The position numbers were made by a program, and so were the translations under genes. A DNA stretch of 64,000 nt from an uncultured Nitrososphaerales archaeon. GTDB lineage: Archaea; Thermoproteota; Nitrososphaeria; Nitrososphaerales; Nitrososphaeraceae. The notes under the pieces were generated by a model. The model had not been told where the DNA came from, did no database searches, and saw only the letters and a list, made by a program, of their open reading frames with translations. The stretch lies in the NCBI GenBank assembly GCA_963695855.1, contig CAVOHZ010000010.1, positions 1,344,001 through 1,408,000 on the forward strand. The letters are read 5' to 3'. Numbering within the stretch: the first letter of the stretch is position 1; each line of letters begins with the position of its first letter. Positions 3,390-64,000 of this stretch are shown here, piece after piece.

Positions 3390-3581
3390 ATGACTGAGGA
3401 AGTGGAAAAAGAAGTTGATAAGACTAACCAATATCAAAAATCATATGGAAGTAAATTACTACATGATAAAGTAGCTATTGCTGTACATGGAGCAGTTGGG
3501 AGTCAGATTGCTCGTAAATTTTCTAAAGGAGATAAAGGTTTTCCTTTAAGGACAACTTGTCCAATGATAGTTGAGAGTTGA
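3390..3581 (+). pseudogene. SDR oxidoreductase N-terminal remnant
   Basis: LLHDKVAIAVHGAVGSQIARKF is a degenerate Rossmann start; truncated. Confidence 0.45.
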
Positions 3582-4650
3582 AGAGTTGAATATTATGAAA
3601 AAGATAATACCATTTTCAGTTTTGACAGTATCAGTAAAGAACATATTCTTAATTTCAATAATTATAATTATTGCTATTTTTCCATTCTTTATCCAACAAC
3701 AAATGATGGCACAACAGCAACAACAACAACAGATTCTATCTAATCAAAAAGTACCAAATATAGAAAGCCCAATTAGGGGACCTGATAATGTTCCTATGTT
3801 TTCCCATCATAAAATATATGTTAATGGTATTGAGCTTCACTATGTGATAGGTGGAGATGATATGCAAGGAGACCCCATAGTCTTACTGCATGGTTTTCCA
3901 CAAACTTGGTATGAATGGCGACACATTATTCCGCAATTAATAGCCAATAACTATACAGTAATAGCTCCAGATATGAGAGGTCTAGGAGATTCAGAAAAGC
4001 CACAAACAGGATACGACAAGAAAACTGTTGCAGAAGATATTTACCAATTAGTAAAGAAGTTAGGATATAGTAAAATCTATCTTGTGGCACATGATATGGG
4101 AGGACCAGTTGCATATTCTTATGCAGCTGCACATCCTCAAGATGTACGTAAAATGGTTATACTTGATACTCTATTACCAGGCTTTGGGGTTGAAGAAGCA
4201 GCAAACTTTTCACCAAAGGGATTATGGCATCTTTCATTTCATGCAGTGAGAGATCTACCAGAGAAATTGACTGAAGGAAAAGAAGACATATATCTTAATT
4301 GGTTTTATGATCATTACTCTTACAATCAATCTGCAATAACATCAGAAGATAGAGAAGAGTACATTAAACAATATTCTAAACCTGGTGCAATGCGTGCAGG
4401 TTTTGAATACTATAGAGCAGTTTTTGAAGATGCAGAACAAAACAAAGAATATGCCAAAGAGAAACTTGATATGCCAATATTGACAATAGGTGGAGAAGCG
4501 GGAGTAGGTAACTTGACTACAACTTCATTTCAAAGAGTTGCAAACAATGTTACAGGAATAACGTTACCAAATACAGGGCATTTCATACCAGAAGAAAGAC
4601 CAAATTTCCTGACAAAACAGGTACTAGAGTTTCTCAAATATCTTTTTTAA
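3571..4650 (+). CDS. Alpha/beta hydrolase (epoxide hydrolase/haloacetate dehalogenase-like) with N-terminal membrane leader
   Basis: HGFPQ, PDMRGLGDS, AHDMGG (Asp nucleophile), GHFIPEE; real start probably the ATG at 3595. Confidence 0.9.
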   Translation: MRVEELNIMKKIIPFSVLTVSVKNIFLISIIIIIAIFPFFIQQQMMAQQQQQQQILSNQKVPNIESPIRGPDNVPMFSHHKIYVNGIELHYVIGGDDMQGDPIVLLHGFPQTWYEWRHIIPQLIANNYTVIAPDMRGLGDSEKPQTGYDKKTVAEDIYQLVKKLGYSKIYLVAHDMGGPVAYSYAAAHPQDVRKMVILDTLLPGFGVEEAANFSPKGLWHLSFHAVRDLPEKLTEGKEDIYLNWFYDHYSYNQSAITSEDREEYIKQYSKPGAMRAGFEYYRAVFEDAEQNKEYAKEKLDMPILTIGGEAGVGNLTTTSFQRVANNVTGITLPNTGHFIPEERPNFLTKQVLEFLKYLF

Positions 4651-4792
4651 TAAAATAAATTTATTTTTTTTTGTTGGAAGAGACTATATTTTAGAAATAT
4701 TATTTACCAATCTCAAACATACATAAATCTTTCACTTTTTCTTATTTAGAATCCTGTCGAAATGATGGTATGATAATATGAAAAATTATTAG

Positions 4793-5548
4793 TTAGATCT
4801 GTGCCATACCTCCATCAACGGAAAGGTCGATGCCAGTTATATAACTACTTTCATCTGATGCAAGAAATGAAACCACTTTTGCTACTTCGTCAGGACTACC
4901 CATCCTATTCATTGGCACTGCGATTATTAGGTTCTTCTTTATTTGTTCAATCTGTTCTTTATTCTGAACCAAGCCTTCAACGGCAGGTGTATCTATTGGT
5001 CCAGGACTTACAGCATTAACACGGATTTTTCTGTTTCTCAAATCAACTGTCCAAGTTCGCGCAAACGAACGAACTGCAGCTTTGGTCGCATTATAAACAC
5101 TAAATGCCTCTATTCCTTTGGATGCAGCGATAGAAGCATTCAAAATGATAGAACCTCCATCCTGAAACAGCGGAAGTGCTTTTTGTACAGTAAAGAGGAC
5201 TCCTTTTACATTAATACTAAATATTTTATCAAAGTGTTCTTCAGAGATTTCTCCTAATGGAGAAAATTCTCCAATACCTGCATTTGCAAATAGAATATCA
5301 ATATGGTCTTTCTGCTCTTTCACAGTATTGTACAATTTATCAAGATCTGCCAGATTAGATACATCACCTTGAATACCAGTTACGTTTTTACCGATCTCTG
5401 ATACTGCTGCATCAAGTTCACTTTGACGACGACCTGTTATGAAAACATATGCACCTTCTAATATGAACCTCTTTGCAGTAGCTAAACCAATACCACTGGT
5501 TCCTCCAGTAATAACCGCAATTTTTCCTTCAAGTTTATTTTCATTCAT
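4793..5548 (-). CDS. Short-chain dehydrogenase/reductase
   Basis: [25 protein letters not shown]. Confidence 0.95.
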
Positions 5549-10500: not shown

Positions 10501-10505
10501 GGCTC

Positions 10506-10844
10506 TGACTATATGAAAATCTTTATTGGTACCAATCCCTTCTGTATTCAGGCTAGGTTCAAAGTTAACATACTCCGTACGAGAGTGAGGCTCTGACTGA
10601 ACCAATATCCGAGCGGCTATACTACTACCTCATAAAGAAGGTGAATAGATGTTTGCCGCCTGTTAGCCGACATAAAAAAAAGAAAATAAAATAAAAAAAG
10701 AATGAAAAAAAGCAAAATCAAGGGAAAGTAACAAGTATAGCATATGCTATTTTAGATAATTTTTAATATGATGAATTATAATAGAATATTACGCTTAACA
10801 GGAACATAAGGATGACCTGATACAGATAGAGATTTTCATAGATG
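10506..10844 (+). mobile_element. Non-autonomous IS1111/IS110-type mini element (RNA-only), copy 1
   Basis: TG-actat-ATGAAAATCT (10513-10522) ... AGATTTTCAT (10830-10839)-aga-TG; near-identical copy at 63616-63950 with different outer flanks; removing it restores GGCTCTGTTAA. Confidence 0.85.
10550..10670 (+). ncRNA. Predicted bridge/seekRNA of the mini element
   Basis: Two stem-internal loop-hairpin modules closed by ggcta/tagcc; loop strands match the target flanks (aagttaaca, gaggctctg) and the element right end (gaatagatg). Confidence 0.72.
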
Positions 10845-10924
10845 TTAACTTAACGAAAGATCTAACTATATGTGAAGAGTCAAGTGAATCCAAATCAGAC
10901 AGTAAGTTATGCTCTAACAGTAGT

Positions 10925-12008
10925 ATGATGTATGTAGGAATGGATCTCCATAAGAACTACTTACAGATTGGAGTAATGGATGAGAAAGGAAAAGTAATCA
11001 GCAATAGCAAAATAGAGAATGATATACAACAGATAGGGGATTTTTTGACCAGATCAATAAAATTAATAAAAATGATGATGGTAAGAACTGCTGCCACAAT
11101 CATCAAAAGATAGTAATGGAATCATCATGTGTGTATGGTATAACTATACGAATACTGGTCTGAAGAAAGAAATCTGGATGTAATACTATCAAATCCAATT
11201 AAAACAAGAGCAATTGGATCAGCAAAAAAAATAAAGACAGATAAACTTGATGCAGTAAAACTATCTAGTTTACTGAGAGGGGGATTCATATCAGAATGTT
11301 ATGTACCTAATAAAAAAACTATGGAACTACTTGATGAGCTGGTAAGACATAGAATTGCACTGGTGATGAGAATGAGAACCAGATTGAAGAACAAGATCCA
11401 TGGGATAATGCATATGAAAGGAATGCGAATTAATAGTAACAATAATAGTACTGCTCGCTTCACAATAGAGTATATCAATAAACTACAAGCATTGAACGAT
11501 TATAGAATTGATGCTTACATTCGTTTGATAGACTCATTTGATTATGAGATTAAACAGGTATCCAAGCAGATTCCTGCTGTGTATGCAAAAGAAGATATTG
11601 CAAGATTATTGGTGACAATACCTGGTATTAGATACCATATATTCTGCTCTTCTTCTTCTAATAAGTGAAATTGGCGATATTAACAGATTTACAGATTCAA
11701 ACCATCTTTGTTTGTTCGTATTCGGGATTGATACCATCCATCAACTCATAGTTCTTTCTGGTGGAATAACATATCATGGTAACATAACTAAAACAGGCAG
11801 TAGCAAATATCTAAGATGGATAATGGCTGAATGCATGCGTTCTCATATCAGCAGAACTCAACCTGACAGTAACATAACAAAATTCTGTTATAGACTGGCA
11901 AAAAAGAAGGGAAGTGCTAAAGCAACAGTTGCAGCATCATCCAAACTGTTAAAGATATATAGTCTACTGGATAATGAAAGAGAAGAGAGAATATACACAT
12001 ACAAATAA
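10925..12008 (+). pseudogene. IS110-family DEDD transposase, multiple frameshifts
   Basis: YVGMDLHK, KTDKLDA, LVTIPGI, SGGITYHGNITKTGS..YLRW spread over several frames. Confidence 0.92.
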
Positions 12009-12084
12009 CAACAATAACAATGATAAAATCGAAAGAAAGATTTAAAATTTATTATTATAGTTAAGGTGATAACAAATTATTATT

Positions 12085-12200
12085 ACAGTCACAAGACATC
12101 TATTGAGGGAAAGCCTCGTCGATCTAACTGTGGTAACTCCTTAACAAATGGATAAAGACGGTAATGAGGGAAAGCCTCGCATGGATAAGTATCCGTTTCT
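12085..12200 (+). ncRNA. Predicted bridge/seekRNA of the IS1111 element
   Basis: Two GAGG-GAAAG-CCTC hairpins (12105, 12166), each followed by a 9-mer ending in the TA core: gtcgatcTA (left flank gatcTA) and gcatggaTA (right end catggaTA). Confidence 0.65.
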
Positions 12201-12333
12201 ACAAATAATGAGGAGATGAATAAATAAAAAAATAACCATGATGAATTAAGATAAATATTTAATAATACTTCACATGGATATAGCTGTGAATGTCTTGCTT
12301 GTTTTTTATTTTATGATAGTATTCTTAAATTTA

Positions 12334-14911: not shown

Positions 14912-15281
14912 GCTTGACGGTGATTTTAATTTTGTTATAATCTTTTAGTAACTTTTTTGTATATTTTTTTCAAAGTATATGTTCCTAATTGGTTAACTGG
15001 CTCTAAGGGCTTCGAGTCCAACATGTAGTTGGGATCTGTAAACTATTATTTATTAATTTAGTAACTTATTAAAATATATCCAAGCTTTAGCTGAGTATAT
15101 AATATTATGAGAAACATGGGAGAAGGATAAGCGATATATTACAGATAGGACTAATGAATATGATTACACAACTGTTAACACAGCTCTATTTTAGGATTGA
15201 AAGCAACCCAAACAAATATCTAAGAATGCATTTTCTTTTGATTTTAATCATGCTAGTGTGTCAAAAGTTGTAGTTTCAAAC

Positions 15282-15456
15282 CTATTTTAGTCAAATTCAA
15301 ACGGTGTCAAAAAATTATACTATTTTAGTCAAATTCAAACGGTGTCAAAAAATTATACTATTTTAGTCAAATTCAAACGGTGTCAAAAAATTATACTATT
15401 TTAGTCAAATTCAAACGGTGTCAAAAAATTATACTATTTTAGTCAAATTCAAACGG
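15282..15456. repeat. Perfect 38-bp tandem repeat, about 4.6 copies
   Basis: tattttagtcaaattcaaacggtgtcaaaaaattatac starts at 15283, 15321, 15359, 15397 and 15435 (partial); no spacers. Confidence 0.95.
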
Positions 15457-15665
15457 AATCGAAGGTCGCACATCCTCGAGCTCCCCAGAGACAACCACAA
15501 AGAACGGTGCCCCGGTGTCCCTGCTCATAGGACACTTCGCCACCATTCATCGCACGTATGTGTCCATGCGCTGCAATGCGAGTAAGCTGTGCTGGCGTTA
15601 ATTTCGGAAATATTTGTTCAATACGAGAGCTGATTATAGGAAGTCCCCTGCGCGTATTTGACATA
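15457..15665 (-). pseudogene. 5' fragment of a cNMP-binding/thioredoxin reductase-like gene
   Basis: MSNTRRGLPIISSRIEQIFPKLTPAQLTRIAAHGH is a close paralog of the N-terminus encoded at 27307. Confidence 0.85.
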
Positions 15666-18091: not shown

Positions 18092-19153
18092 ATGTTTATT
18101 ACATACTCATACATAGATTTAACAATGAATGAAAAAAGCAGTTCTTCATTTCATTTTTCATTTTATCTGGTAACAATATTTCTTACAATTCTTGTTGTAA
18201 CCGTAATAATTTTTAGCTCATTAACATTAAATATAAATCAACCCGCAATAGCAGAACAACAACCATCACCTTTTCTTGAAGACATCTCTTTTGATATTGA
18301 TAATGTTACTTTTTCTCATCATATAGCATCTGTCAATAGAATTCAAATGCACTATGTAATTGGAGGTAAAGGAGATCCTGTTGTACTGTTACATGGATTT
18401 CCGCAATCATGGTATGAATGGAGACACATAATGCCGGCATTAGCCAAAAATTATACTGTTGTAGTGCCTGATCTTAGAGGATTTGGTGATTCTTCAAAAC
18501 CTATAACGGGTTATGATGGTAAGACTACTGCTGAAGATATTTATCAATTGGTATCTCAATTAGGTTTCAATAAACCAATTTTTCTCGTAGCACATGATGT
18601 AGGCGCGCAGACAGCTTATTCATATGCTTTCTCTCACCCTGCTAATGTATCAAAATTAGTAATCATGGATTTCCCATATCCAGGTTTTCTACCTGCCGAA
18701 TTTGGTAAGAATGGACCTTGGTGGTTTGCTTTTCATCAGACACCTAATTTACCCGAATTTCTAGTAGAAGGTAAAGAACGAGAATATATATCATGGTTCT
18801 TCAAAGAGTTAGCCTACAACCCATCTGCAATTACAGAAGAAGATATAGATATATTTGCGCATCAGTTTTCATCTCCTGGTACAGCGCGTTCAGCATTTGA
18901 ATATTTTAGAGCTTTTCCAGTTGATGCAGAACAAAATATAGAATCATCCAAAACCAAGATAACAATACCTGTATTAGCATTAGGTGGTGATATTTATCCA
19001 GGGTTAGGTGGCGACATACCTGGCAACTTTGCAGCAAGCTCGTTACAATCACTAGCTACGAATGTAACTGGAGTCACTGTTCCACTTTCAGGACATTGGA
19101 TTCCTGAGGAGCGTCCAGACTTTGTAATAGACCAACTTTCAAAATTCTTTTGA
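18092..19153 (+). CDS. Alpha/beta hydrolase with membrane leader
   Basis: HGFPQ, PDLRGFGDS, AHDVG, GHWIPEE; start probably the ATG at 18125. Confidence 0.9.
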   Translation: MFITYSYIDLTMNEKSSSSFHFSFYLVTIFLTILVVTVIIFSSLTLNINQPAIAEQQPSPFLEDISFDIDNVTFSHHIASVNRIQMHYVIGGKGDPVVLLHGFPQSWYEWRHIMPALAKNYTVVVPDLRGFGDSSKPITGYDGKTTAEDIYQLVSQLGFNKPIFLVAHDVGAQTAYSYAFSHPANVSKLVIMDFPYPGFLPAEFGKNGPWWFAFHQTPNLPEFLVEGKEREYISWFFKELAYNPSAITEEDIDIFAHQFSSPGTARSAFEYFRAFPVDAEQNIESSKTKITIPVLALGGDIYPGLGGDIPGNFAASSLQSLATNVTGVTVPLSGHWIPEERPDFVIDQLSKFF

Positions 19154-23471: not shown

Positions 23472-24512
23472 ATGACTGAAAAAAGCAACCGTTCATTTCA
23501 GTTTCCATTTTATTTTGTAACAATATTTCTTACAATTCTTGTTGTAACCGTTATAATTTTTAGCTCATTAACATTAAACATGAATTATACTACAATAGCA
23601 CAACAACAATCACCTTATAATGAAGATATATCTTTTGATATTGATAATGTGACCTTTTTGCATCATATGGCATCTGTGAATGGTATTCAATTACACTATG
23701 TTACAGGTGGTCAAGGAGACCCTATAGTCTTGTTACACGGTTGGCCAGAAACATGGTATGAATGGAGGCATATTATGCCAGCTTTAGCTAAGAACTACAC
23801 TGTTATTGCGCCTGATCTGCGAGGCCTTGGAGACTCTTCAAAACCGTTTACGGGATATGATGGTAAAACCGTAGCTGAAGATATACATCAACTAGTTACT
23901 CAGTTAGGATTTAAAACAATTTTCCTAGTTGGTCACGATATAGGAACACAGGTAGCCTACTCTTATGCAGCTGCACATCCTACGGAAGTAAAGAGGTTAG
24001 TAGTCATGGATTTAACTATTCCTGGGTTTGAACCTCCCGGAATGATGCCAATATGGTGGCGCTCATTCCATGAAACACCTGATGTACCTGAAGCCCTTGT
24101 AAAAGGAAAAGAGATGATGTATTTATCATGGTTCTATCGTAATCTTGCGTATAATCCATCTGCAATAACGCAAACGGATATTAACGAATTTGTTAGTCAT
24201 TATTCTGCTCCAGGCGGAATGCGTGCCGGATTTGAGTATTATCGAGCCTTCCCACAGGATGCAATTCAAAATATGAATTATTCAAAGACAAAGCTTACAA
24301 TGCCAGTACTGGCGCTAGGAGCAGGATACATTCCAACATTTGGAGGTAATATTACTATGCCTACTATCGTGTATGGGATGCAGCAATTGGCTCAAAATGC
24401 TACGGGTATTACAGTTCCCAATTCGGGTCACTGGATTCCAGAAGAGCGGCCAGACTTTGTAATAAAAATGCTCGACAATTTCTTTGCTTGTAATTCTACT
24501 AAATCTAAATGA
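23472..24512 (+). CDS. Alpha/beta hydrolase with membrane leader
   Basis: HGWPE, GHDIG, GHWIPEE; leader nearly identical to that of the 18125 gene. Confidence 0.92.
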   Translation: MTEKSNRSFQFPFYFVTIFLTILVVTVIIFSSLTLNMNYTTIAQQQSPYNEDISFDIDNVTFLHHMASVNGIQLHYVTGGQGDPIVLLHGWPETWYEWRHIMPALAKNYTVIAPDLRGLGDSSKPFTGYDGKTVAEDIHQLVTQLGFKTIFLVGHDIGTQVAYSYAAAHPTEVKRLVVMDLTIPGFEPPGMMPIWWRSFHETPDVPEALVKGKEMMYLSWFYRNLAYNPSAITQTDINEFVSHYSAPGGMRAGFEYYRAFPQDAIQNMNYSKTKLTMPVLALGAGYIPTFGGNITMPTIVYGMQQLAQNATGITVPNSGHWIPEERPDFVIKMLDNFFACNSTKSK

Positions 24513-29088: not shown

Positions 29089-29904
29089 GGCTCTATCTAC
29101 AAAGTTTTGCAAGACTCTATCATGTTCAAAAATTATAAACTTCAGATAAACTTCCAGTCCCAAAGAGTGCCTTAATATTATTTCTTCGCTTCTCATCTAC
29201 AAAAATTATCTCTGGTTCATACTTTACTGAACGAAGCGATCTCTGCCGAGATTCCTTGTACAGCCATACCTTTTTTGGTGGGGTAAGTACATGAAATAGA
29301 TTACAATCCTCTTTTTGCATATACGATAATAGTCATCAAAAGATCCGATTCTATCTTTCAAATATTGGTTGACTCTTTCCATCAAAATTTTTCTGAAATG
29401 GTGAGTGTAGATAATGTTTTAATTCAATTATGTTTCATGCTTTATCATACCATGTACCTGCATTATCTGTATACACGGTATGTTTTCCATATTTTGATAC
29501 AAGAGACCTTATGAACTTTTCAGCGACTATCATGTTTCTCTCTTCTGAGAGATAGACCCCAAGCACAGATTTATGAACAGGTTCAATACAAAACCATAAC
29601 CAAAGTGTTGATTACCAATCTGAATTATAGTTTTATCTATGATGAACGCTGATACTCTTTTTCTTTTATACATCTGACAGGATCCAAATCGTTGAATCCA
29701 TTTCCAAACAGCAACATAACTTCTTTTTTGGTCATTAAAAGGTTCCAATGCTTTGGATGTATCTCGTAGACTGAGACCAAGAAAATACAGATAAAGAGAA
29801 TACATTACAATAAAAGAAGATGTTTTATTTCTTTCAAATTTAATTTTCATGGAAAATTTAGAACATTCTCAGCTATAGCTTTTACTGCTTATCTGAACAG
29901 AGCC
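29089..29904 (-). mobile_element. IS6-family element, degenerate
   Basis: LYLYFLGLSLR, RSYVAVWKWIQRF, YGKHTVYTD, IERFFD remnants; end GGCTCTGTTCAG (reverse complement, ending 29904); left boundary uncertain. Confidence 0.8.
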
Positions 29905-33067: not shown

Positions 33068-33468
33068 TTCTAAGTTTATAAATACATAAATTTAAAAAGC
33101 ATCAACTACTGTAAATAAAAATAAATAACTTTTTCAGAAATATATATTTTCTAAGAGAATCTTTCGCAATTATATTATACTCAACTAGAATTTTTAGTAT
33201 TTCTTTTCTGTCTTTTTTAAAGTGATTCTTTGAATATTCTTTTCTGAAATTCTTATAAGATTCAGGAAATTTAAAATTAGCAGCAAAAAAAGACTTATGT
33301 TGTTCTGGATAAAAGTTTTTTAAAATACTATCTGCAATCTGCAATGTGATGATAATAATTGCTTGTTTTGAGAATTGAGGACATCTCTTTCAATATTGTT
33401 AATTGTTGTAGAGTTTAACTGTCGTCTTTCTTGAACCTCTTTTTTTCTATGCTTCTTGTATACTTAAT

Positions 33469-34518
33469 TGTTGTACTTACACAGATAGGTAACAGATTCA
33501 CTTACCAACATGGGTAACACTTTTTATCTGCTTATTTGTTTTGATATTCTTACAACTATTTAATCTTCCTTTCATAAGAAACATTTCAGATGGTGTGTGA
33601 CCATTGATTCCACCATGTTCTCTTGTTTCATTGTATGCTTTGACAAACATGGAATATCTTCTCTTTCCTTCTTCTCTGTTGGAAATATTTTCTATTGCCA
33701 AAAATTCATTTTTGACTATCTTGTTATATGCTTCAATTTTACCCTGTAGTTGTGGATATCTAGCAGGTATGGATTTATCTTTAATGTTGTTACGTTGTAG
33801 AAAACGTCTGAAGATTTTGGATGTAAGCTGTTTACCATTATCATGCAGTACCTTGAGAGGTTTACCATTCTCTACTATGTAGTCTTCCAGTACCTGTAGT
33901 ACATCTACACTTCGTTTTCTTTCAGACCAGTCACTTGTTACCTTTCTTGAACAGTCATCTTCACAACTGATAAAATAGTTCTTTTGAGTAGAATTCTCAA
34001 GGTAAAATGGTCCTAAAATGTCCATCTGTACCATTTGATTGGGTTTTTCCATTGCAAATCTTTTGTATTTTCTATTTCTGATCTTGCATCTTAGTATGTT
34101 CAGTCCATGTCTTTTCAGTATCTTGTAGATGGTTTTTGTACTGAAGGAGATATCATTCAGTCGTCTTAACCTGAACCTTATGCGATTGCAACCAAATCTT
34201 TTTGTTACACGTAAATCCAATATTTCCTGTTCTATCTCATTTGTTACTTTTCCAGGTTGTATATTATATGGTTTCCTACTTTTATCCCGTAAACCGTCTA
34301 TTCCATTCTCAAGGTACCTGTTCTTCCATTTGTAGTATGACTTTCTAGATGTATGATATCTATTACAGATATTAGTTACAGTATCTCCAGTCGACTCTTT
34401 CTCATGAATTAAATTAAATTTTGTTTGTAATTCTATTTTTGTATACACTTCCTAGCAGATTAGGAAGTGTTACCTATCTCGGTAAATGAAATTGTAACCT
34501 ATGTTGGTAAGTACAACA
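33469..34518 (-). mobile_element. IS481-family element, copy 1 (1050 bp)
   Basis: TGTTGTACTTAC...GTAAGTACAACA termini. Confidence 0.93.
33498..34448 (-). CDS. IS481-family transposase
   Basis: N-terminal HTH plus rve core (QMD, EDDCSR, HDNG, GKIE); GTG start. Confidence 0.93.
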   Translation of the reverse strand: MYTKIELQTKFNLIHEKESTGDTVTNICNRYHTSRKSYYKWKNRYLENGIDGLRDKSRKPYNIQPGKVTNEIEQEILDLRVTKRFGCNRIRFRLRRLNDISFSTKTIYKILKRHGLNILRCKIRNRKYKRFAMEKPNQMVQMDILGPFYLENSTQKNYFISCEDDCSRKVTSDWSERKRSVDVLQVLEDYIVENGKPLKVLHDNGKQLTSKIFRRFLQRNNIKDKSIPARYPQLQGKIEAYNKIVKNEFLAIENISNREEGKRRYSMFVKAYNETREHGGINGHTPSEMFLMKGRLNSCKNIKTNKQIKSVTHVGK

Positions 34519-34839
34519 ATTAAATCAAATTATTATCTTATCTTATTGCAACAGATAAGAAGAAACACACCTCTCTTCTGTGTTTTATATGGATATGATA
34601 AAAATTCCCTACAATATAATTAAGATTATATTAAAATAGGTATAAAGTAATAATAACTACCTAATAATGGTCACAGTATCTATAAATCAATCTTATATCA
34701 ATTACAAATAGATCGAAGAATATAAAAAAAATACACTTGAAATTGTATTGATACGGCTCCCAGAAGATAAGTTTTAAGGTAAACCCTAGTAACTGCATAC
34801 TGCTTGTAGAAAGATATTGAATTATACTTAATGCCTAGG

Positions 34840-35889
34840 TGTTGTACTTACACAGATAGGTAACAGATTCACTTACCAACATGGGTAACACTTTTTATCT
34901 GCTTATTTGTTTTGATATTCTTACAACTATTTAATCTTCCTTTCATAAGAAACATTTCAGATGGTGTGTGACCATTGATTCCACCATGTTCTCTTGTTTC
35001 ATTGTATGCTTTGACAAACATGGAATATCTTCTCTTTCCTTCTTCTCTGTTGGAAATATTTTCTATTGCCAAAAATTCATTTTTGACTATCTTGTTATAT
35101 GCTTCAATTTTACCCTGTAGTTGTGGATATCTAGCAGGTATGGATTTATCTTTAATGTTGTTACGTTGTAGAAAACGTCTGAATATTTTGGATGTAAGCT
35201 GTTTACCATTATCATGCAGTACCTTGAGAGGTTTACCATTCTCTACTATGTAGTCTTCCAGTACCTGTAGTACATCTACACTTCGTTTTCTTTCAGACCA
35301 GTCACTTGTTACCTTTCTTGAACAGTCATCTTCACAACTGATAAAATAGTTCTTTTGAGTAGAATTCTCAAGGTAAAATGGTCCTAAAATGTCCATCTGT
35401 ACCATTTGATTGGGTTTTTCCATTGCAAATCTTTTGTATTTTCTATTTCTGATCTTGCATCTTAGTATGTTCAGTCCATGTCTTTTCAGTATCTTGTAGA
35501 TGGTTTTTGTACTGAAGGAGATATCATTCAGTCGTCTTAACCTGAACCTTATGCGATTGCAACCAAATCTTTTTGTTACACGTAAATCCAATATTTCCTG
35601 TTCTATCTCATTTGTTACTTTTCCAGGTTGTATATTATATGGTTTCCTACTTTTATCCCGTAAACCGTCTATTCCATTCTCAAGGTACCTGTTCTTCCAT
35701 TTGTAGTATGACTTTCTAGATGTATGATATCTATTACAGATATTAGTTACAGTATCTCCAGTCGACTCTTTCTCATGAATTAAATTAAATTTTGTTTGTA
35801 ATTCTATTTTTGTATACACTTCCTAGCAGATTAGGAAGTGTTACCTATCTCGGTAAATGAAATTGTAACCTATGTTGGTAAGTACAACA
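34840..35889 (-). mobile_element. IS481-family element, copy 2 (1050 bp)
   Basis: Same termini; only one difference from copy 1 noticed. Confidence 0.93.
34869..35819 (-). CDS. IS481-family transposase
   Basis: Protein identical to 33498-34448. Confidence 0.93.
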   Translation of the reverse strand: MYTKIELQTKFNLIHEKESTGDTVTNICNRYHTSRKSYYKWKNRYLENGIDGLRDKSRKPYNIQPGKVTNEIEQEILDLRVTKRFGCNRIRFRLRRLNDISFSTKTIYKILKRHGLNILRCKIRNRKYKRFAMEKPNQMVQMDILGPFYLENSTQKNYFISCEDDCSRKVTSDWSERKRSVDVLQVLEDYIVENGKPLKVLHDNGKQLTSKIFRRFLQRNNIKDKSIPARYPQLQGKIEAYNKIVKNEFLAIENISNREEGKRRYSMFVKAYNETREHGGINGHTPSEMFLMKGRLNSCKNIKTNKQIKSVTHVGK

Positions 35890-38294: not shown

Positions 38295-39109
38295 ACCGAA
38301 ATGGGCTTACAATGTATAATTCAATCTATTACTTCAGAATAATTTTTTTAACATCCAAAATAAATATAATTTCTAGATCAAAAACTGATTATCAACAACA
38401 AATTCATACGATAGACAATAGTTTACAAGATGGGTAAATGTTCAAAATTTAAGTTTAACGAATAAAATATCGGCTCTGACGATATGAAAATCTTTTAGTC
38501 TGTTTCATTACTGTATTCAATAAAATTTATAGATATGAAAATAAAATATGCCTCTCTAGGTCCAGAATAGTTTGCACGTGTGACGAAGACTACTGTCACA
38601 TGCAAATCGCCACATCTTTAAAACAAATTTTGTACTTTAAGAATAGAGATCATAAATAATATAATGATAGATTAGCACATGAGAAAAAATATGACATACA
38701 AAATATAGTCTCTCTCAGGGTCTAGAATAATTTCTACGTGTGACAGTCCTATGATATACAAAGAATTTGTTTTAGATAGAATGATGCAATTATTTCTAAG
38801 GATTTTAGATTTTTTACAATGCATATATCTTCAGTGGATTAAGAGATTGTACTTCGTTAATTCTAATACTTTTAGGCGCCTAAAATTTTTACTTCTTTTA
38901 ACAAGCAAGCTATTATATTCATTTATGATTATTATTATACTTTCAAATTAGCAAATTCAAAAATTAACAAAATTAAGAATTTCAATGTTGTGGATTATTA
39001 TGTAGATTATATGATTATTTATCGTTTCTATAAAAACAATAATCAATATGTATGATATTTTACAGCTATCTTAAATATTCTTTTATATGTACAATAAAAA
39101 TTATATATT

Positions 39110-39274
39110 ATGTTAAAGAAATGTTCAAAATGCGAAGAGAGTTTTGAATGTAAAGAATCTAATACATGTTGGTGTAACAAGATTGAATATATATCTATTA
39201 TGAATGGTAATAATAAAGTAGACTGTTTTTGTAAAAATTGTCTTTTAGAAAAGATTAGTAAATCAAATAGATAA
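39110..39274 (+). CDS. Cysteine-rich CWC-family small protein (54 aa, not in the ORF track)
   Basis: MLKKCSKCEESFECKESNTCWCNK...DCFCKNCL. Confidence 0.8.
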   Translation: MLKKCSKCEESFECKESNTCWCNKIEYISIMNGNNKVDCFCKNCLLEKISKSNR

Positions 39275-39355
39275 AATTTGATTATTTAGTAGTAGAAATT
39301 TTGATTGAAGAAAACAAGTTTGTGTGCTTCCTGGTTAGATAATATACAAATAGTG

Positions 39356-40297
39356 CTATATTAGATAATATACAAATAGTGCTATATAAATGCCTCCAGC
39401 AATAATCAGAGGATAATAGGGAATTAAATAATTAGATGATACAAATAAAGAATGTTTCAATTCAACTATAAATGGAACATATGTGAACATCCATAATCCA
39501 CCAAATAATACAAATCCAACAAGTTTATTTTTATTATATAAAAATGCTGGTAAAATAGTTCCTAATAATAGGTATGGAAATGTAAAGGTAATATTTGGAT
39601 TAGCAATTATAGTGGAAATTATTATTGAGAAAGCAAATACTCCTGCAATATATACTGGATTAATATTGTTGTTTACATTGCCATAATATACAATTGATAA
39701 CGATAGTATTGGCATTACAATAAAGGAAATTATCAAAGATACAAACGGAGGAGGAATAATATAAAAAGATGTATCCACAGATTTAACTGAAACTAAAGAA
39801 AACATCAACAACAGAAAAGTTATAGATAGCCACAAAACTCCAAGACTAATAGTTTGACCACAAATCTTTGAATAAGCAATAGTAGTAGTTGACGGCAATT
39901 TTTGAAAATGTTTAAAGATCATGAATGAATATAAAATTGGTATAAAAGAGAGCATCACATGTGGAAGACTTAAAAAACTATCGAAACCAAAATTATCATG
40001 CCAGAGCAAATCAAAATATCCAGATAATAGTTGACATGCAGGTATTACAGCAAACAAAAAATATTTTGGACAAATAATAGTAATAATTACACCTATTAAG
40101 AAAACAAGAAATAAGCTAGAATATATCACCAGATGTGCAGGCTGAAAGAAATTATCAACTTCATTGAGAGAATGGTAGGTAATATCCCAATATGCTCCTG
40201 TGATACCTGAAAAAAGCAAAATTATGAGTATGACAAAAAGATAATTTAGTATTTTATCTTTTTTATATTGAAAATATTCTACTAAATTATCAGCCAA
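39356..40297 (-). CDS. Polytopic membrane protein with two DxxxH-x12-H motifs
   Basis: WDITYHSLNEVDNFFQPAH and FDLLWHDNFGFDSFLSLPH; 26-bp duplication at the 3' end. Confidence 0.75.
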   Translation of the reverse strand: MADNLVEYFQYKKDKILNYLFVILIILLFSGITGAYWDITYHSLNEVDNFFQPAHLVIYSSLFLVFLIGVIITIICPKYFLFAVIPACQLLSGYFDLLWHDNFGFDSFLSLPHVMLSFIPILYSFMIFKHFQKLPSTTTIAYSKICGQTISLGVLWLSITFLLLMFSLVSVKSVDTSFYIIPPPFVSLIISFIVMPILSLSIVYYGNVNNNINPVYIAGVFAFSIIISTIIANPNITFTFPYLLLGTILPAFLYNKNKLVGFVLFGGLWMFTYVPFIVELKHSLFVSSNYLIPYYPLIIAGGIYIALFVYYLI

Positions 40298-40896
40298 TAT
40301 TCACATTCAATATTATCTATCTATATAATAAAAGTAATGATATGTGAAATATTAATCGAAATTATTTTTTATGATAAGAATAGATAATATAGTAAATAGT
40401 ATTATTATTTACATTAATTTATTTAAAATTGATGATTGTAATCAATAATAATAATGCTTTAAATTGATAATATAAAATAAGAGGATAACAAAAAACTAAA
40501 AAATATATAATAAATATTTTTTAATCCTTCTCAATGTTCTATTATTATAAAAAAAAATTAAGAAATGGTTACTTCTGAGTTCAAAATACTTTGAGTGTGA
40601 CAAAACTATATTGTCACATGCAAGTCGTTACATCTTTAAAACAAATTTGTTACTTTAAAAATGGAGAACAGAAATAATTTAATGTTAGATTAGCATATGA
40701 GGAAAAATAATGGCATACAGAATATAGTCTCTCTCTGGGTCCAAAATAGTTTTTAGGTGTGACAGTTTTCATGTGACAGTGTGACGCTAAAAGTAAATTC
40801 ACCACTGAAAGATAGAGATAAAAATATTCATATGAAAAAATATTTTATTTAGAGAAAAGAATTGTTATCTATATCTATATTATAATATAGACTATC

Positions 40897-41427
40897 ATGA
40901 GCAATTCTAATGAAAAAGATAAAAAATTAGATCTGATTAAAGAAAACTTTAATCATGCTAGACATGTAGAAAATGAAAGGTTACAGTTTGCTCAGATTTA
41001 TGGTGCAATCGTAGCGGGTTCTTTTGCTTTATCTTCAACAGGAGAGATGTCGATTCAAATATACGGTACTTTATTAATATTATTATATATTATAGGATGG
41101 TTCGGCTTTATATTAACAATCAAGCTCTCTTATGAGTTCGATAATCATATAGAAAGAAATCATAAACTTGCAATGACTGATGAAACTATCAGTAAGTATT
41201 TGGCATTCCCACTAGATAGTGGAATCTTTAAAGTGTTAAAAGCAAAATATGTGTTCTTTTTGTTTTACATTGGAATATGTGATTACTTGCTATATTTGCT
41301 AGTGCATATTTTTTTGAAGCAATATTGGTATCTTATTGTAGTAACAATAATTATGTTAATAATAGTTCTCTTGGCTGATCAAGAATTTAAAAAACATCAA
41401 AATAGATACGCAAAAGAGAAAATGTGA
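40897..41427 (+). CDS. Four-TM hypothetical membrane protein
   Basis: ENFNHARHVENER followed by hydrophobic helices. Confidence 0.7.
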   Translation: MSNSNEKDKKLDLIKENFNHARHVENERLQFAQIYGAIVAGSFALSSTGEMSIQIYGTLLILLYIIGWFGFILTIKLSYEFDNHIERNHKLAMTDETISKYLAFPLDSGIFKVLKAKYVFFLFYIGICDYLLYLLVHIFLKQYWYLIVVTIIMLIIVLLADQEFKKHQNRYAKEKM

Positions 41428-42373
41428 GATAAAAAGAAAATGACATCTTATAAGAAATTTATTAAATTAATGCATCTCTGTTTTCAAAATATTTTCAAGG
41501 TGTGACACTGTCACATGGTCATGGTTTGTCACATGCTGAAAACAAATCCACCCTCCCCAGAGGCAGACAAAAATATTTTCAATGGTAAACTAAATAATAA
41601 GTTTGTAATATAGTTTGTCAGAATATGCTGTTGACGGCATTAAAATTCAGATAAAGAAGAAAATCCAAAAGAGAATAAAAAATAACTTCTCTCTAGGTCT
41701 AAAATACTTTCTTCGTGTGACGCTGTCACATGAACATTGTCACACGCTGAAAGCAAATTTACCCCCAGAGCGGGATATAAAAATAAAATTCTTTACGATA
41801 AACTCAGTTATTGTAGATTAATAGAATTTGTTGACGATATCGCTGAAATTCGGATAAAGATAATAAAAACAAGAGAATAAAATATTGTCTCTCTCTGGGT
41901 TCAGAAAATTTTCACCTTATGACATAAGTAGATGTCACACAATATTTTAAAAAGTTTCACTGAATATAAATTGATATAACTACTAAGGTTTAAGCATTAT
42001 TGAGATAATATAAAGCTCTATTTGAAGTGGTTCAGTGGGATTTGAATCCTTCTATAAAGTGGAACCGGTTATTATTTTTTAAAATATCTTGAAATTCCTC
42101 ATACACTCATTTCCAAATTTTCTAAATTATAGTTTGAATATTGTAAGCTATTGATGTAAGTTTTCAAAATTTGTTATTATGATTTTTAATATAAGCAATA
42201 CCAATAATACCCAAGAAAAATGTGTCCATTAAAAGAAAGTGTAAATTATATTCTTTTTATCAAAATGATGAAAAGTCATGATGGTGGTGAATATAGTAAA
42301 GATATTTTGCTATATCTAATATGAAGAGGACATTTTTTCCATCACTGTTCTAATAAATCCATATAATGTTATC

Positions 42374-52600: not shown

Positions 52601-52719
52601 GGCTCTGTTAAGTTAACCAAAAATAATCAGGTAAATTGAAAAAATCAAATAAAATTGAGCGTAGAACATAATATAAAAGCAGAACATATCTAATATTTTA
52701 TTCTTAAGTTAATAGCACC
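52601..52719. mobile_element. IS6-like MITE; unoccupied target of the mini-IS1111
   Basis: Ends ggctctgttaagttaac and cttaagttaatagcacc (reverse complement ggtgctattaacttaag); no ORF. Confidence 0.65.
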
Positions 52720-53804: not shown

Positions 53805-55208
53805 TTATTTGCGCAGTGATTTAAAGCCCGCGCGAACCTCTTCTGAAAAGAGTTGCGGCTGTTCCCATGCCGCAAAATGCCCGCCTTTGTCTAGTCTGTT
53901 ATAATGGATGAGTTTGGGATAAGCCCGCTCTGCCCAGCTTCGCGGGGCCTGATATAGCTCGTCAGGAAAGATGCTCACTGCAACGGGGATCAAGACGTTT
54001 TTGACGTCGAAAAAGGGTAACTTGTTTTCCCAATAGAGACGAGCCGAAGAAATCGCCGTGTTCGTCAACCAGTAGAGCGTGATGTTGTCTAGCACATCAT
54101 CTCGTGTAAGGCCTTCAGGTTGTCCGTCAAAGACGCGTGAGATAAGCTCCAAACTACGCGCGTCGTGGTCGAGTATCCAGGCGGCTAGGCCGACGGGTGA
54201 ATCCGCAATTCCGTATAGTGTCTGTGGGCGGTTCCCCATTTCGAGCGCATAGGCCACGCCTTTCGAAAAAAAGTATTTCAGCTGCTCGCACGCGAGTCTT
54301 TCGTCGGGTGAGAGATTGGATGGCAGCGAGCCTCCGGTCTGGATCGCCTTTGAAACGTCGGGTGGAACCGTGCCAGGCATGTTGGAGTGAATGCCGAGCA
54401 ATTCTGGGGGGGCTTGTACCCCCATCATATCAACGATAAGTGCACCCCAATCACCACCTTGCGCAACAAACTTCGTGTATCCAAGGCGCTTCATGAGCTC
54501 TACCCACGCACGTGCAATACGTACGGGGCCCCAGCCGGTAGTGGTCGGCTTGCCTGAGAACCCGTAGCCCGGCAATGAAGGAATCACCACATGGAAAGCA
54601 TCCGATGCGCTTGCGCCATGTGCCGTGGGGTTGGTCAGGGGATCGATGATCTTCAGCTGCTCGATGACCGAGCCGGGCCATCCGTGCGTGACGATAAGCG
54701 GCAACGCATTCTCATGTTTCGAACGAACATGGATGAAATGAATGTCGAGCCCATCGATCTTGGTAATGAACTGCGGCAGGGAGTTCAGTTTCGCTTCGAC
54801 CTTGCGCCAATCGTGTTCTGTCACCCAATAGCGCGCGAGTTTCTGCATTGTCGCGAGCTGTACGCCTTGCGACTGATCCGTCACCGTTTCCCGGTCAGGC
54901 CACTTTGTCGCGCTTATGCGCCTACGCAATTCGATAAGTTCCGCTTCCGGAACGTTCACTTGAAAAGAACGAATATCCGAGTTGTTGATTTTATTAATAT
55001 TATTACTTGTAATATTGCTGTTATTCATAACCCCAGGCAAAACTGGTGGTGCTGTTTCTTTTATTGCTGATGCTTCTCTAATAGTCTTAAGAATGTTCGA
55101 TGTACCAAAAACACCTAACCCAAGAGATAATGATCCTGCTCCCAAAAGTTTCAGAAATTCCCGCCTTGAAAACTGCTTATCTTTCAAACTGTCTTGATCA
55201 TCAGACAT
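53805..55208 (-). CDS. Microsomal-type epoxide hydrolase with Tat signal peptide
   Basis: SRREFLK; EHN domain, THGWPGS, QGGDWG, GGHFAAWEQP. Confidence 0.93.
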   Translation of the reverse strand: MSDDQDSLKDKQFSRREFLKLLGAGSLSLGLGVFGTSNILKTIREASAIKETAPPVLPGVMNNSNITSNNINKINNSDIRSFQVNVPEAELIELRRRISATKWPDRETVTDQSQGVQLATMQKLARYWVTEHDWRKVEAKLNSLPQFITKIDGLDIHFIHVRSKHENALPLIVTHGWPGSVIEQLKIIDPLTNPTAHGASASDAFHVVIPSLPGYGFSGKPTTTGWGPVRIARAWVELMKRLGYTKFVAQGGDWGALIVDMMGVQAPPELLGIHSNMPGTVPPDVSKAIQTGGSLPSNLSPDERLACEQLKYFFSKGVAYALEMGNRPQTLYGIADSPVGLAAWILDHDARSLELISRVFDGQPEGLTRDDVLDNITLYWLTNTAISSARLYWENKLPFFDVKNVLIPVAVSIFPDELYQAPRSWAERAYPKLIHYNRLDKGGHFAAWEQPQLFSEEVRAGFKSLRK

Positions 55209-62100: not shown

Positions 62101-63065
62101 ATGGCACAGATCCAACTAATAATTTTTCATATTATCATACCACCATTTCGACAGGATTCTAAATAAGAAAAAGTGAAAGATTTATGTATATTTGAGATTG
62201 GTAAATAATGTTTCTGAAATATAGTCTCTTCCAACAAAAAAAAATAAATTTATTTTATTAAAAAAGTTATTTGAGAAACTCTAGTATCTGTTTTGTCAGG
62301 AAATTTGGTCTTTCCTCTGGTATGAAATGCCCTGTATTTGGTAACGTTATTCCTGTAACATTGTTTGCAACTTTTTGAAATGAAGTTGTAGTCAAGTTAC
62401 CTAAGGCTGCTTCTCCACCTATTGTGAGTATTGGCATATCTAGTTTCTCTTTGGCATATTCTTTGTTCTGTTCTGCATCTTCAAATATCGCTCTATAGTA
62501 TTCAAAACCTGCACGCATTGCACCAGGTTTGGAATATTGTTTAATGTATTCTTCTCTGGCTTCTGATGTTATTGCAGATTGATTGTAAGAGTAATGATCA
62601 TAAAACCAATTAAGATATACATTTTCTTGTCCATCAATCAATTTCTCTGGAAGATCCCTTACTGCATGAAATGAGGGATGCCATAAGCCATTTGGTGAAA
62701 AGTTTGCTGCTTCTTCAATCCCAAATCCAGGTAATAGAGTATCAAGTATAACCATTTTACGTACATCTTGAGGATGCGCAGCAGCATAAGAATATGCAAC
62801 TGGTCCTCCCCAATCATGAGCTACAAGATAGATTTTACTATATCCTAACTTTTTTACTAATTGATAGATATCTTCTGCAACAGTTTTCTTGTCATATCCA
62901 GTTTGTGGTTTTTCTGAATCTCCTAGACCTCTCATATCTGGAGCTATTACTGTATAGTTATTGGCTATTAATTGGGGAATAATGTGTCGCCATTCATACG
63001 AAGTTTCTGGCCATCCATGCAATAAAACAATAGGATCTCCTTTACCACCTATCACATAATGCATA
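62101..63065 (-). repeat. Inverted duplicate of ~3835-4807
   Basis: Hydrolase core, 3' intergenic region and last SDR codons (atggcacagatc) shared at high identity. Confidence 0.9.
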
Positions 63066-63283
63066 AGGATACCATTAACTGTAGTTTTATAATGTGTATA
63101 ATCTATTTTTTTCTCGCTATCATCGATAATGTTTTGTGCAGCAGTAGCCGGAGAAATAAATCCTAAAGAAACTACAGAACAACAACAAATGATGACTGCC
63201 AGAAAACTTAAGGTATAGGTAATATTTCTGTTTTCGACTATAGATTCAAGTTCATATTGATTTTCCATTTTTACATCATCCAT
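62267..63283 (-). CDS. Alpha/beta hydrolase, close paralog of 3571-4650 with a different leader
   Basis: HGWPE, AHDWGG, GHFIPEE. Confidence 0.92.
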   Translation of the reverse strand: MDDVKMENQYELESIVENRNITYTLSFLAVIICCCSVVSLGFISPATAAQNIIDDSEKKIDYTHYKTTVNGILMHYVIGGKGDPIVLLHGWPETSYEWRHIIPQLIANNYTVIAPDMRGLGDSEKPQTGYDKKTVAEDIYQLVKKLGYSKIYLVAHDWGGPVAYSYAAAHPQDVRKMVILDTLLPGFGIEEAANFSPNGLWHPSFHAVRDLPEKLIDGQENVYLNWFYDHYSYNQSAITSEAREEYIKQYSKPGAMRAGFEYYRAIFEDAEQNKEYAKEKLDMPILTIGGEAALGNLTTTSFQKVANNVTGITLPNTGHFIPEERPNFLTKQILEFLK

Positions 63284-63615
63284 CCTTTATTACTACATTC
63301 TATAAAATCTAGACTTTAAGGCGACTGAATTCTCCTATAGTAGTACGAGATCCAGGTGTAATAAGAGATAGATATTGTTCGTAAAGTGATTCACAATTCT
63401 TATCTTTTTCTGCTAAATGTACAAACCTAATTAGATTTTCTTTAGTAGCATTTATTTCAAATTGGGGAGAAACTAATCCCACTTTCATATTTATTATTAT
63501 ATTTTATAATATAAAAACATAATATAATCAACAATAGAAATTTCATATTGTTACGTTATTCTAAATCGTTTACTGAAAATCATGGTTTAGTAATTTACAT
63601 AAAATCATTGGGCTC

Positions 63616-63950
63616 TGACTATATGAAAATCTTTATTGGGTACCAATCCCTTCTGTATTCAGGCTAGGTTCAAAGTTAACATACTCCGTACGAGAGTGAG
63701 GCTCTGACTGGACCAATATCCGAGCGGCTATACTACTACCTCATAAAGAAGGTGAATAGATGTTTGCCGCCTGTTAGCCGACATAAAAAAAAGAAAATAA
63801 AATAAGAATGAAAAAAAGCAAAATGAAGGGAAAGTAACAAGTATAGCATATGCTATTTTAGATAATTTTTAATATGATGAATTATAATAGAATATTACGC
63901 TTAACAGGAACATAAGGATGACCTTATACAGATAGAGATTTTCATAGATG
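63616..63950 (+). mobile_element. Non-autonomous IS1111/IS110-type mini element (RNA-only), copy 2
   Basis: GGCTC-TG-actat-ATGAAAATCT (63623) ... AGATTTTCAT (63936-63945)-aga-TG-TTAAGTTAA. Confidence 0.85.
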
Positions 63951-64000
63951 TTAAGTTAAGGAAAATTTATGAAATAAATTATAAAATTCTTTTAAAATTG

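Follow-up and report, generated by a model that had tools for sequence, protein, structure and literature searches.

The 119 bp unit at bp 52601..52719 of the window (the whole 64,000 bp stretch analyzed here, C10:1344001-1408000 of the 3.55 Mb genome of a soil ammonia-oxidizing archaeon, with 31% G+C in 11 contigs) is very probably a non-autonomous IS6-type MITE whose left terminal repeat is an unoccupied target site for a bridge-RNA IS110 family (family A below) and its mini derivative. The unit, to which no strand is assigned, is bounded by IS6-type terminal inverted repeats, contains no insertion, and is overlapped by no ORF of 80 aa or more. Its left repeat, the empty target (GGCTCTGTTAAGTTAA; bp 52601..52616, + strand), is an exact match and the only exact copy in the window, where 0.05 matches are expected from shuffled sequences; a copy with two mismatches lies at bp 29889-29904 on the − strand. 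Within it, the left target and core, GGCTC-TG, occupy bp 52601-52607 and the right target, TTAAGTT, bp 52608-52614, and the repeat matches perfectly the guides of a full-length family A element (FL_C10_929325), namely GGCTCTG and the reverse complement of AACTTAACA. A sequence-only reading of the window had noticed that deletion of the mini element from its second copy (bp 63618-63950) leaves GGCTCTGTTAAGTTAA, that this 16-mer stands uninterrupted at bp 52601, and that it is there one end of an ORF-less 119 bp unit with a related inverted repeat opposite. These observations hold; the right end of the unit (bp 52704..52719, − strand, read directly) is TTAAGTTAATAGCACC, whose reverse complement GGTGCTATTAACTTAA agrees with the left arm at 12 of 16 bases. 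Since its core is TA, not TG, the right arm is a poor target. The interpretation built on these observations, an RNA-guided parasite of IS6-family ends, is supported overall.

The 16-mer is the terminal repeat of a numerous family of IS6 elements. With up to two mismatches it is found at 82 sites in the genome (0-5 for ten shuffled patterns) and with up to three at 165 (19-47 for the shuffled patterns), and GGCTCTGTTAA occurs at 10 sites where a composition estimate predicts about one by chance. The 16-mer sites form 42 inverted pairs genome-wide, half of which (21) span 716-734 bp and enclose an IS6-type transposase gene, as judged by tblastn; its 221 aa product matches PF13610, which has 32 matches in the genome, 28 of them above the cut-off. 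Ten other pairs span 99-128 bp, seven of them exactly 119 bp, and have no IS6 transposase gene. It had been suggested that the target is the terminal repeat of IS6 elements or MITEs, and these 82 sites and 21 IS6-size and ten MITE-size pairs confirm it. The target duplications that were to be looked for as a check are also present, in that 12 of the 42 pairs lie between perfect 8 bp direct repeats (6 of the 21 of IS6 size, 3 of the 10 of MITE size, and 3 longer ones). Two IS6-type pairs with perfect 8 bp duplications, C3:255295-256690 (1396 bp) and C8:260125-261527 (1403 bp), are about twice the usual IS6 length, with some 700 bp of extra DNA.

Membership in IS6 was judged by size, GG-initiated repeats, the DDE_Tnp_IS240 domain and 8 bp duplications. 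The resident elements encode an IS240-type DDE transposase within 716-734 bp, a size inside the ~0.7-0.9 kb of the family, and have short, GG-initial terminal inverted repeats (16-18 bp, GGNNCTGTTAANTTAA) with 8 bp duplications; we take these repeats to resemble canonical IS6 ends. The resident proteins score 93 bits on NF033587 (NCBIfam IS6), below its cut-off of 125, and thus are divergent members. The window itself holds an IS6-family remnant at bp 29288..29904 (− strand), in which fragments of a frameshifted transposase gene lie at bp 29288-29850. It ends with the repeat GGCTCTGTTCAGATAA at bp 29889-29904, the two-mismatch copy mentioned above, and has the same 40 nt end as intact IS6 copies (GGCTCTGTTCAGATAAGCAGTAAAAGCTATAGCTGAGAATG), so the earlier recognition of a related IS6 end at bp 29904 was correct. 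No partner repeat was seen for this remnant.

The 119 bp unit is not single-copy, as a blastn search of the genome with it gives 19 matches with 71-100% identity (itself counted). It has the characters of a MITE in being short, multicopy and without an ORF, in having IS-type terminal inverted repeats, and in having sister copies with duplications; three of the 119 bp sisters have perfect 8 bp duplications, and the window copy has none (CCTTAATT on one side and GTATATAC on the other). Its likeness to the IS6 ends is limited to the first ~18 nt. It is conceivable, but rather improbable, that the unit merely shares the IS6 terminal sequence as a decayed end pair or a regulatory repeat and was not moved by an IS6 transposase; the short extent of the resemblance and the lack of a perfect 8 bp duplication at the window copy and at seven of the ten paired copies would fit this idea. 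Against it, the perfect duplications at three of the ten have the length made by IS6, seven of the ten paired copies are a uniform 119 bp, and there are 19 copies in the genome. Moreover, duplications are expected to be lost where many copies recombine, as in IS6/IS26, and this counters the same idea.

Family A belongs to the IS110 family. The full-length copy at C10:929325-930767 contains a 356 aa ORF that encodes a DEDD transposase with both characteristic domains, PF01548 (DEDD_Tnp_IS110, N-terminal; 77.3 bits) and PF02371 (Transposase_20, C-terminal; 79.3 bits), and it scores 223.3 bits (cut-off 140) on NF033542, “IS110 family RNA-guided transposase,” in agreement with the earlier assignment of the inserting element. 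About 215 nt of non-coding DNA, which includes the guides discussed below, precedes the transposase gene, and about 110 nt follows it. As in other IS110-family members, terminal inverted repeats and a target duplication are lacking, and the core common to target and element ends is short; the element does have sub-terminal repeats, ATGAAAATC on the left and GATTTTCAT on the right, each 5 nt away from the respective end (on the right with the core included). The mini element is 333-337 nt long, and its first 210 nt and last ~110 nt are 72-77% identical to the ends of these ~1.45 kb elements; because both ends match, it is an internal-deletion derivative of them. The genome has seven full-length mini copies (79-100% identity) vs three full-length copies of family A, and four mini copies that are 97-100% identical each lie in different flanks.

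Three left junctions of this family lie in the window. Mini copy 2 (bp 63618..63950, + strand), which has both ends and no transposase gene, splits a MITE repeat whose outer 7 nt, GGCTCTG, lie at bp 63611..63617 (+) and whose inner part, TTAAGTTAAGG..., begins the stretch at bp 63951..64000 (+) that continues as the host MITE body to about 62 nt beyond the window; the host corresponds to a blastn match of the 119 bp unit at C10:1407949-1408058, with a partner repeat at C10:1408062. The layout of this insertion is GGCTCTG-ACTATATG...CATAGATG-TTAAGTTAA or, with the element ends written differently, GGCTCTG-ACTATATGAAAATC...TTTTCATAGATG-TTAAGTTAA. Mini copy 1 (bp 10508..10844, +; 97% identical to copy 2) splits an IS6-type end, of which the outer 7 nt, again GGCTCTG, lie at bp 10501..10507 (+) and bases 8-27 (TTAACTTAACGAAAGATCTA) at bp 10845..10864 (+), between the mini element and a second IS110-family element, B; TTAACTTAACGAAAGATCTA matches the intact IS6 left ends GGTGCTGTTAACTTAAGGAAAGAGCTATAGCTGTGAA. 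For the right terminal repeat of the host of copy 1, CTTAAATTTAGAGCC near bp 12310-12324 was considered and rejected, as GAGCC... starts another multicopy repeat there. The third left junction is a truncated family A left end, about 50 nt that follow GGCTCTG, at bp 38472..38530 (+). This fragment (bp 38479-38530) is cut off by a different repeat family, TCTCTC.GGGTC...GTGTGAC, which occurs four times in bp 38683-41926.

The occupied sites can be written as GGCTC-TG-[element]-TG-TTAAGTTAA, and the uninterrupted site is the left flank plus the right flank with a single TG. TG alone is common to both junctions, which is therefore an IS110-type core signature. All seven mini copies have the left flank GG[C/T/G][C/T]CTG and the right flank TTAA, so that the repeat is split after base 7 in every case; when full-length and truncated family A copies are included, the left flank is GG[C/T/G][C/T]CTG or a one-mismatch variant of it and the right flank is TTAA or TTGA.

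The upstream non-coding region contains short sequences that correspond to these flanks and to the ends of the element itself. In mini copy 2 the putative right-target guide AAAGTTAACA (bp 63672-63681) is the reverse complement of TG + TTAACTTT, the left-target guide GGCTCTG (bp 63700-63706) is identical to the left flank with the core, and the left-donor guide ATAGATG (bp 63756-63762) is identical to the mini element's own right end. The copy at C8:187906 has GGTCCTG both as guide and as flank, and the full-length copies carry AAACTTAACA and have TTAAGTT as their site. The donor guide has changed in step with the right end, ATAGATG accompanying CATAGATG in the mini element and ATGGATG accompanying CATGGATG in the full-length copies. 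The correspondence is not perfect at every copy; three of the seven mini copies are at TTAAGTT, whereas the guide that they carry calls for TTAACTT.

When one genome per species was scanned, 37 loci of this kind were found, 29 archaeal (59-93% best-segment identity) and eight bacterial (23-29%); the archaeal loci comprise 27 from Nitrososphaeraceae, Nitrososphaerales or Ca. Nitrosocosmicus, one of them identified by contig only, and one from Bathyarchaeia. Twenty-eight archaeal loci were examined, 25 of which have the left end, and they were pooled with 13 copies from the present genome. With the reservation that loci within one genome are not independent, the left guide is identical to its own left flank at 7/7 positions in 28 of 36 loci and at 6/7 or more in 34 of 36. 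Eleven left-guide variants are present, and nine of these have a perfectly matching flank (GGCTGTG, GGTCCTG, GGTGCTG, GGCCCTG, AGTTGTG, AGTTCTG, GGGTTTG, GTTAATG, and GGCTCTG). Among 16 unique pairs the mean left guide-flank identity is 6.06, vs 4.53 when permuted, a value that 0 of 10,000 permutations reach. The right guide matches its flank at 9/9 positions in 11 of 28 loci and at 8/9 or more in 19 of 28 (again 0 of 10,000 permutations), and the donor guide is identical to the right end in 23 of 28. Individual loci illustrate the same relationship; locus L021 has the guide AAAGTGAACA and the flank TTCACTT, and L024, in the Bathyarchaeia genome, has GGGTTTG as guide and flank. Four loci in Nitrososphaeraceae MAGs (L019, L030, L032, and L033), occupied by relatives of family A, have the guide AGTTGTG at the site ...GTTAACAGTTGTG-TAAATAC; IS6 repeats do not begin in this way, so these elements have been retargeted in nature to another repeated sequence.

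In a consensus fold of 23 sequences, the guides occupy both sides of internal loops that lie between stems with compensatory changes (columns 76/90, AU:13, GC:10; columns 130/188, CG:14, UA:9). The informative fold is the alignment-based one only, as a single-sequence fold of the mini left end has a stability like that of shuffled sequences (z = −0.17). No full right-donor guide complementary to TG + ACTATATG was found, and a 4 nt stretch (TATC, TATA, TGTC, or TCCT) covaries by eye with element bases 3-6, the core excluded. The two bases after the left-target guide (AC) are, also by eye, the first two bases of the element, and the two after the donor guide (TT/TA) track the first two of the right flank; such paired bases could possibly form a “handshake.” No Rfam family reaches its gathering score in the window, and with E-values up to 10 allowed, the best match of the mini element is 6A RNA (E = 0.078), so no curated bridge-RNA model recognizes it. 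Twenty of 24 sequencing runs contain part of bp 63400-64000, and one holds at least half of the sampled words; the RNA runs hold 0.09-0.15 of the sampled words of this region. Contigs from soil RNA libraries cover only bp 63673-63800, may be DNA carry-over, and speak neither for nor against expression; no circle junction was seen in them. The common stop of these contigs at bp 63675/63676 was rejected as an RNA end, since it coincides with a variable guide base at which mixed-strain contigs would break.

The covariation of guides and flanks across genomes and the conserved two-loop fold support the earlier proposal of RNA guidance, and family A insertion is thus probably directed by an RNA that is made and used, with loops predicted from the sequence to be complementary to the target and to the element ends. 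It is quite improbable that the transposase protein itself recognizes the IS6 repeat and that the matches between upstream region and flanks are chance or leftovers of sequence capture. The coverage in RNA libraries is weak and the right-target match is imperfect at many loci (9/9 in 11 of 28, as above), which leaves some room for recognition by protein; but the nine left-guide variants match their own flanks even at sites that are not IS6 ends (AGTTGTG and GTTAATG) and at the Bathyarchaeia locus, and the guides lie in the loops of a conserved fold. In addition, the curated model NF033542 names the family RNA-guided, and experiments on relatives show the same (PMC11208160 and PMC11187229).

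Under RNA guidance, family A would act through its DEDD transposase and a bridge RNA with two internal loops encoded in the 215 nt region upstream of the gene, in the second loop of which AT[A/G]GATG matches the element's own right end. Recombination at the common TG would insert family A behind the seventh base of the IS6 repeat and so part the outer 7 nt from the remainder of it. The split IS6 end may be disabled by this, and family A may gain “safe landing sites,” as the sequence-only reading supposed. The mini element retains both ends and a predicted RNA of its own, with a donor guide that has changed together with its right end, and it presumably uses the transposase of the full-length copies. 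Such mobilization in trans is no more than presumed, because this genome has no full-length partner closer than ~77%.

The DNA to the right of the insertions comes from different hosts. It is MITE body at mini copy 2, at C8:113673, at C10:930767 and at others, the right end of an IS6 element with an open 203 aa frame at C8:187906, and an IS6 left end at mini copy 1 and at C3:37347; the repeat itself, and not one host element, is therefore the target. This bears on the very improbable reading that GGCTCTG and TTAAGTTAA belong to the mini element itself, as its ends or as a duplication that it makes, the whole being a composite MITE and the sequence at bp 52601 a look-alike, to which the identical flanks at all mini copies might lend some color. 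Not only do the right-hand sequences differ in origin, but the intact 16-mer terminates 21 transposase-bearing IS6 elements and ten MITEs with 8 bp duplications of their own, and the two junctions have only TG in common. The great number of IS6 elements (32 PF13610 matches) might suggest that IS6 elements and MITEs inserted beside family A elements, but this order of events is hardly credible, since the IS6 repeat has its outer 7 nt beyond the family A element and is thus split, not abutted, and no 8 bp duplication of IS6 type surrounds family A elements.

Occupied and empty sites coexist in the genome, as the earlier reading expected from the empty site in the window. There are nine uninterrupted GGCTCTGTTAA[G/C/T]TT sites, that at bp 52601 included, and 49 under a looser pattern. 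Motif scans gave 109 left-end and 29 right-end matches, most of them chance matches in AT-rich DNA, from which 17 real left junctions and 14 real right junctions were sorted by eye. In six exact GGCTCTGTTCAGATAA ends, which belong to a second IS6 subfamily and include the window remnant, the left half of the target is perfect but the right half has mismatches; this right half is found at none of the 14 family A right junctions, which fits recognition of both halves of the repeat. None of these 14 right junctions runs on into a left end, the arrangement of a circle junction, although rare circles would escape the contigs of an assembly. Of 21 loci in other genomes, 7 have an IS6 transposase gene that begins 20-100 nt beyond the right end of family A, and two have the MITE there.

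The window contains several other repeated sequences. Two tandem IS481/IS3-like copies, 99% identical and 1371 bp apart, lie at bp 33460-35130, each with a 316 aa integrase-core transposase, and an intergenic, perfect tandem array of about 5-6 copies of a 38 bp unit lies at bp 15244-15471. Paralogous genes for alpha/beta-hydrolases/epoxide hydrolases are present at bp 3571-4650, 18092-19153, 23472-24512, 53805-55208, and 62267-63283, and a hydrolase pair forms a 942 nt inverted repeat with 93% identity (bp 3866-4807 vs 62101-63042).

Element B (bp 10865..12280, + strand; 1416 bp) represents a second IS110-family lineage, and its transposase gene is broken. Its insertion point (...GATC-TA-TAGCTG) lies 27 nt inside the IS6 left end that mini copy 1 interrupts at base 7, and its long downstream non-coding region contains GATCTA(AC), CATGGATA, and TATAGTTA, sequences that correspond to the junctions of element B itself. 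The left flank GGTGCTGTTAA[C/G]TTAA..AAAGA.CTA is common to five further copies or fragments of element B. A multicopy repeat, GAGCCTATCCCAAAA..., with about 40 copies genome-wide, begins some 45 nt beyond the right end of element B (bp 12325 onward); it directly follows a complete IS6 16-mer at C6:216834 and C10:1052426 and may be a further element with insertion sites within or next to IS6 repeats. The third IS110 lineage has a 362 aa frame (C10:140647-141948, with further copies at C10:1598639 and C10:267102) and is inserted at GGCTCTGT-AG-AAACCATC, the end of a ~690 bp repeat whose uninterrupted copies read GGCTCTGTAGAAACCATCATAGCTAGC. A fourth, with a 378 aa frame (C10:287356-288837, with an inverted twin ~1.4 kb away), has GCCTTGT-TG-CACAACT as its insertion site, close to the end of a ~730 bp IS that is highly repeated and is also present at window bp 1992-2709; the ORF of this host IS (window bp 1760-2656, −) has PF01609 and PF13737, IS5/IS4-type DDE domains.

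It is possible, although we would not favor it, that these insertions reflect a layered ecology in which at least four bridge-RNA IS110 lineages home to IS ends and disable rivals, and in which the mini elements are free-standing mobile guide-RNA modules. The sites would be base 7 (family A) and base 27 (element B) of the IS6 ends, bases 8-10 of a second IS6-like end (family D), and an IS5-like end (family C), and the splitting of IS ends would amount to a natural, RNA-guided disabling of rival transposons. If this is true, the mini elements, whose donor guide fits the end of the element itself, would be a natural two-component bridge system, and should the four nested lineages prove to be a general anti-transposon ecology, their interest would be greater.

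The known mechanism is unchanged by these findings, and it is extended to a new host group and a new class of target; the archaeal host, the IS6 target, the mixture of IS110 and IS1111 features and the three further IS110 lineages in IS ends are new. With a clear 14-16 nt target and, within a single genome, occupied and empty sites by the dozen, as well as nine naturally reprogrammed guide variants across related genomes, the family is a natural data set for archaeal bridge-RNA targeting. One transposon family is here systematically nested in the ends of another, a habit that probably spares host genes some damage and may leave IS6 ends disabled. Judging from the mini element, a guide-carrying module can apparently spread with no enzyme of its own.

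In the literature covered, which left most subscription journals, ISfinder and the supplements of the bridge-RNA and seekRNA papers outside its scope, we found no IS110-family insertion into IS6 repeats and, within the same limits, nothing on these elements in Nitrososphaeraceae. The sequence-only reading had called the inserting element an IS1111 member, which is right in part. The sub-terminal inverted repeats (ATGAAAATC and GATTTTCAT, 9 bp) are within the 7-17 bp of the IS1111 group, and the guide order, AAAGTTAACA (bp 63672-63681) 5′ of GGCTCTG (bp 63700-63706), is of IS1111 type by the description in PMC11187229. The guide region, on the other hand, precedes the transposase gene, which is the arrangement of the IS110 group, whereas the IS1111 group has a long RNA-bearing non-coding region downstream. 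Nor is family A an IS621-like member of the IS110 group as PMC11208160 defines it, its guide order being reversed and its repeats 9 bp long. Because one defining feature of each group fails, it is filed here simply as IS110 family, and this combination of upstream RNA (IS110) with IS1111-type guide order and 9 bp sub-terminal repeats bears on the relationship between the two groups.

By its habit, family A resembles IS4321 and IS5075 of the IS1111 group. According to work by Partridge and Hall in 2003, these reportedly insert in the 38 bp terminal repeats of Tn21-family transposons. Like them, family A homes in a single orientation to one fixed position within another mobile element's terminal inverted repeat, and has sub-terminal inverted repeats; unlike them, it has an archaeal host, a target in IS6-family and MITE repeats and not in Tn3-family transposons, a guide region upstream of the transposase gene, and a transposase-less derivative alongside.

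The bridge-RNA mechanism itself was described for IS621 (PMC11208160; PDB 8wt6). Family A resembles IS621 in its DEDD transposase and, by prediction, in a two-loop RNA in the upstream non-coding end, in guides that overlap on a common core dinucleotide and in recognition of both target and donor. It differs from IS621 in the reversed order of the target guides (top-strand complement first), in sub-terminal repeats of 9 bp rather than 2-3 bp, in its TG core, and in having an IS end and not a REP sequence as target. The two transposases match weakly and in the N-terminal domain only (E = 6e-9); the closest plasmid-borne proteins are haloarchaeal IS110-family transposases with ~40% identity.

The top-strand complement lies 5′ of the bottom-strand match in family A, as in the IS1111-type seekRNAs of ISEc11, ISKpn4, and ISPa11, but the RNA of those elements is downstream of the transposase gene and that of family A upstream; element B has the downstream layout of the former (PMC11187229 for the seekRNA elements). 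The nearest parallel to the mini element is the “MITE-like” ssr9 module of ISPpu9, for which the authors (PMC12288879) propose movement with the transposase in trans. Both are short, transposase-less IS110-family derivatives with a small RNA (predicted in the mini element) and flanks like element ends. Unlike ssr9, the mini element keeps its predicted bridge RNA entire, including a donor guide that fits its own end, lies in IS6 repeats and not in REP sequences, and has seven copies against three full-length ones.
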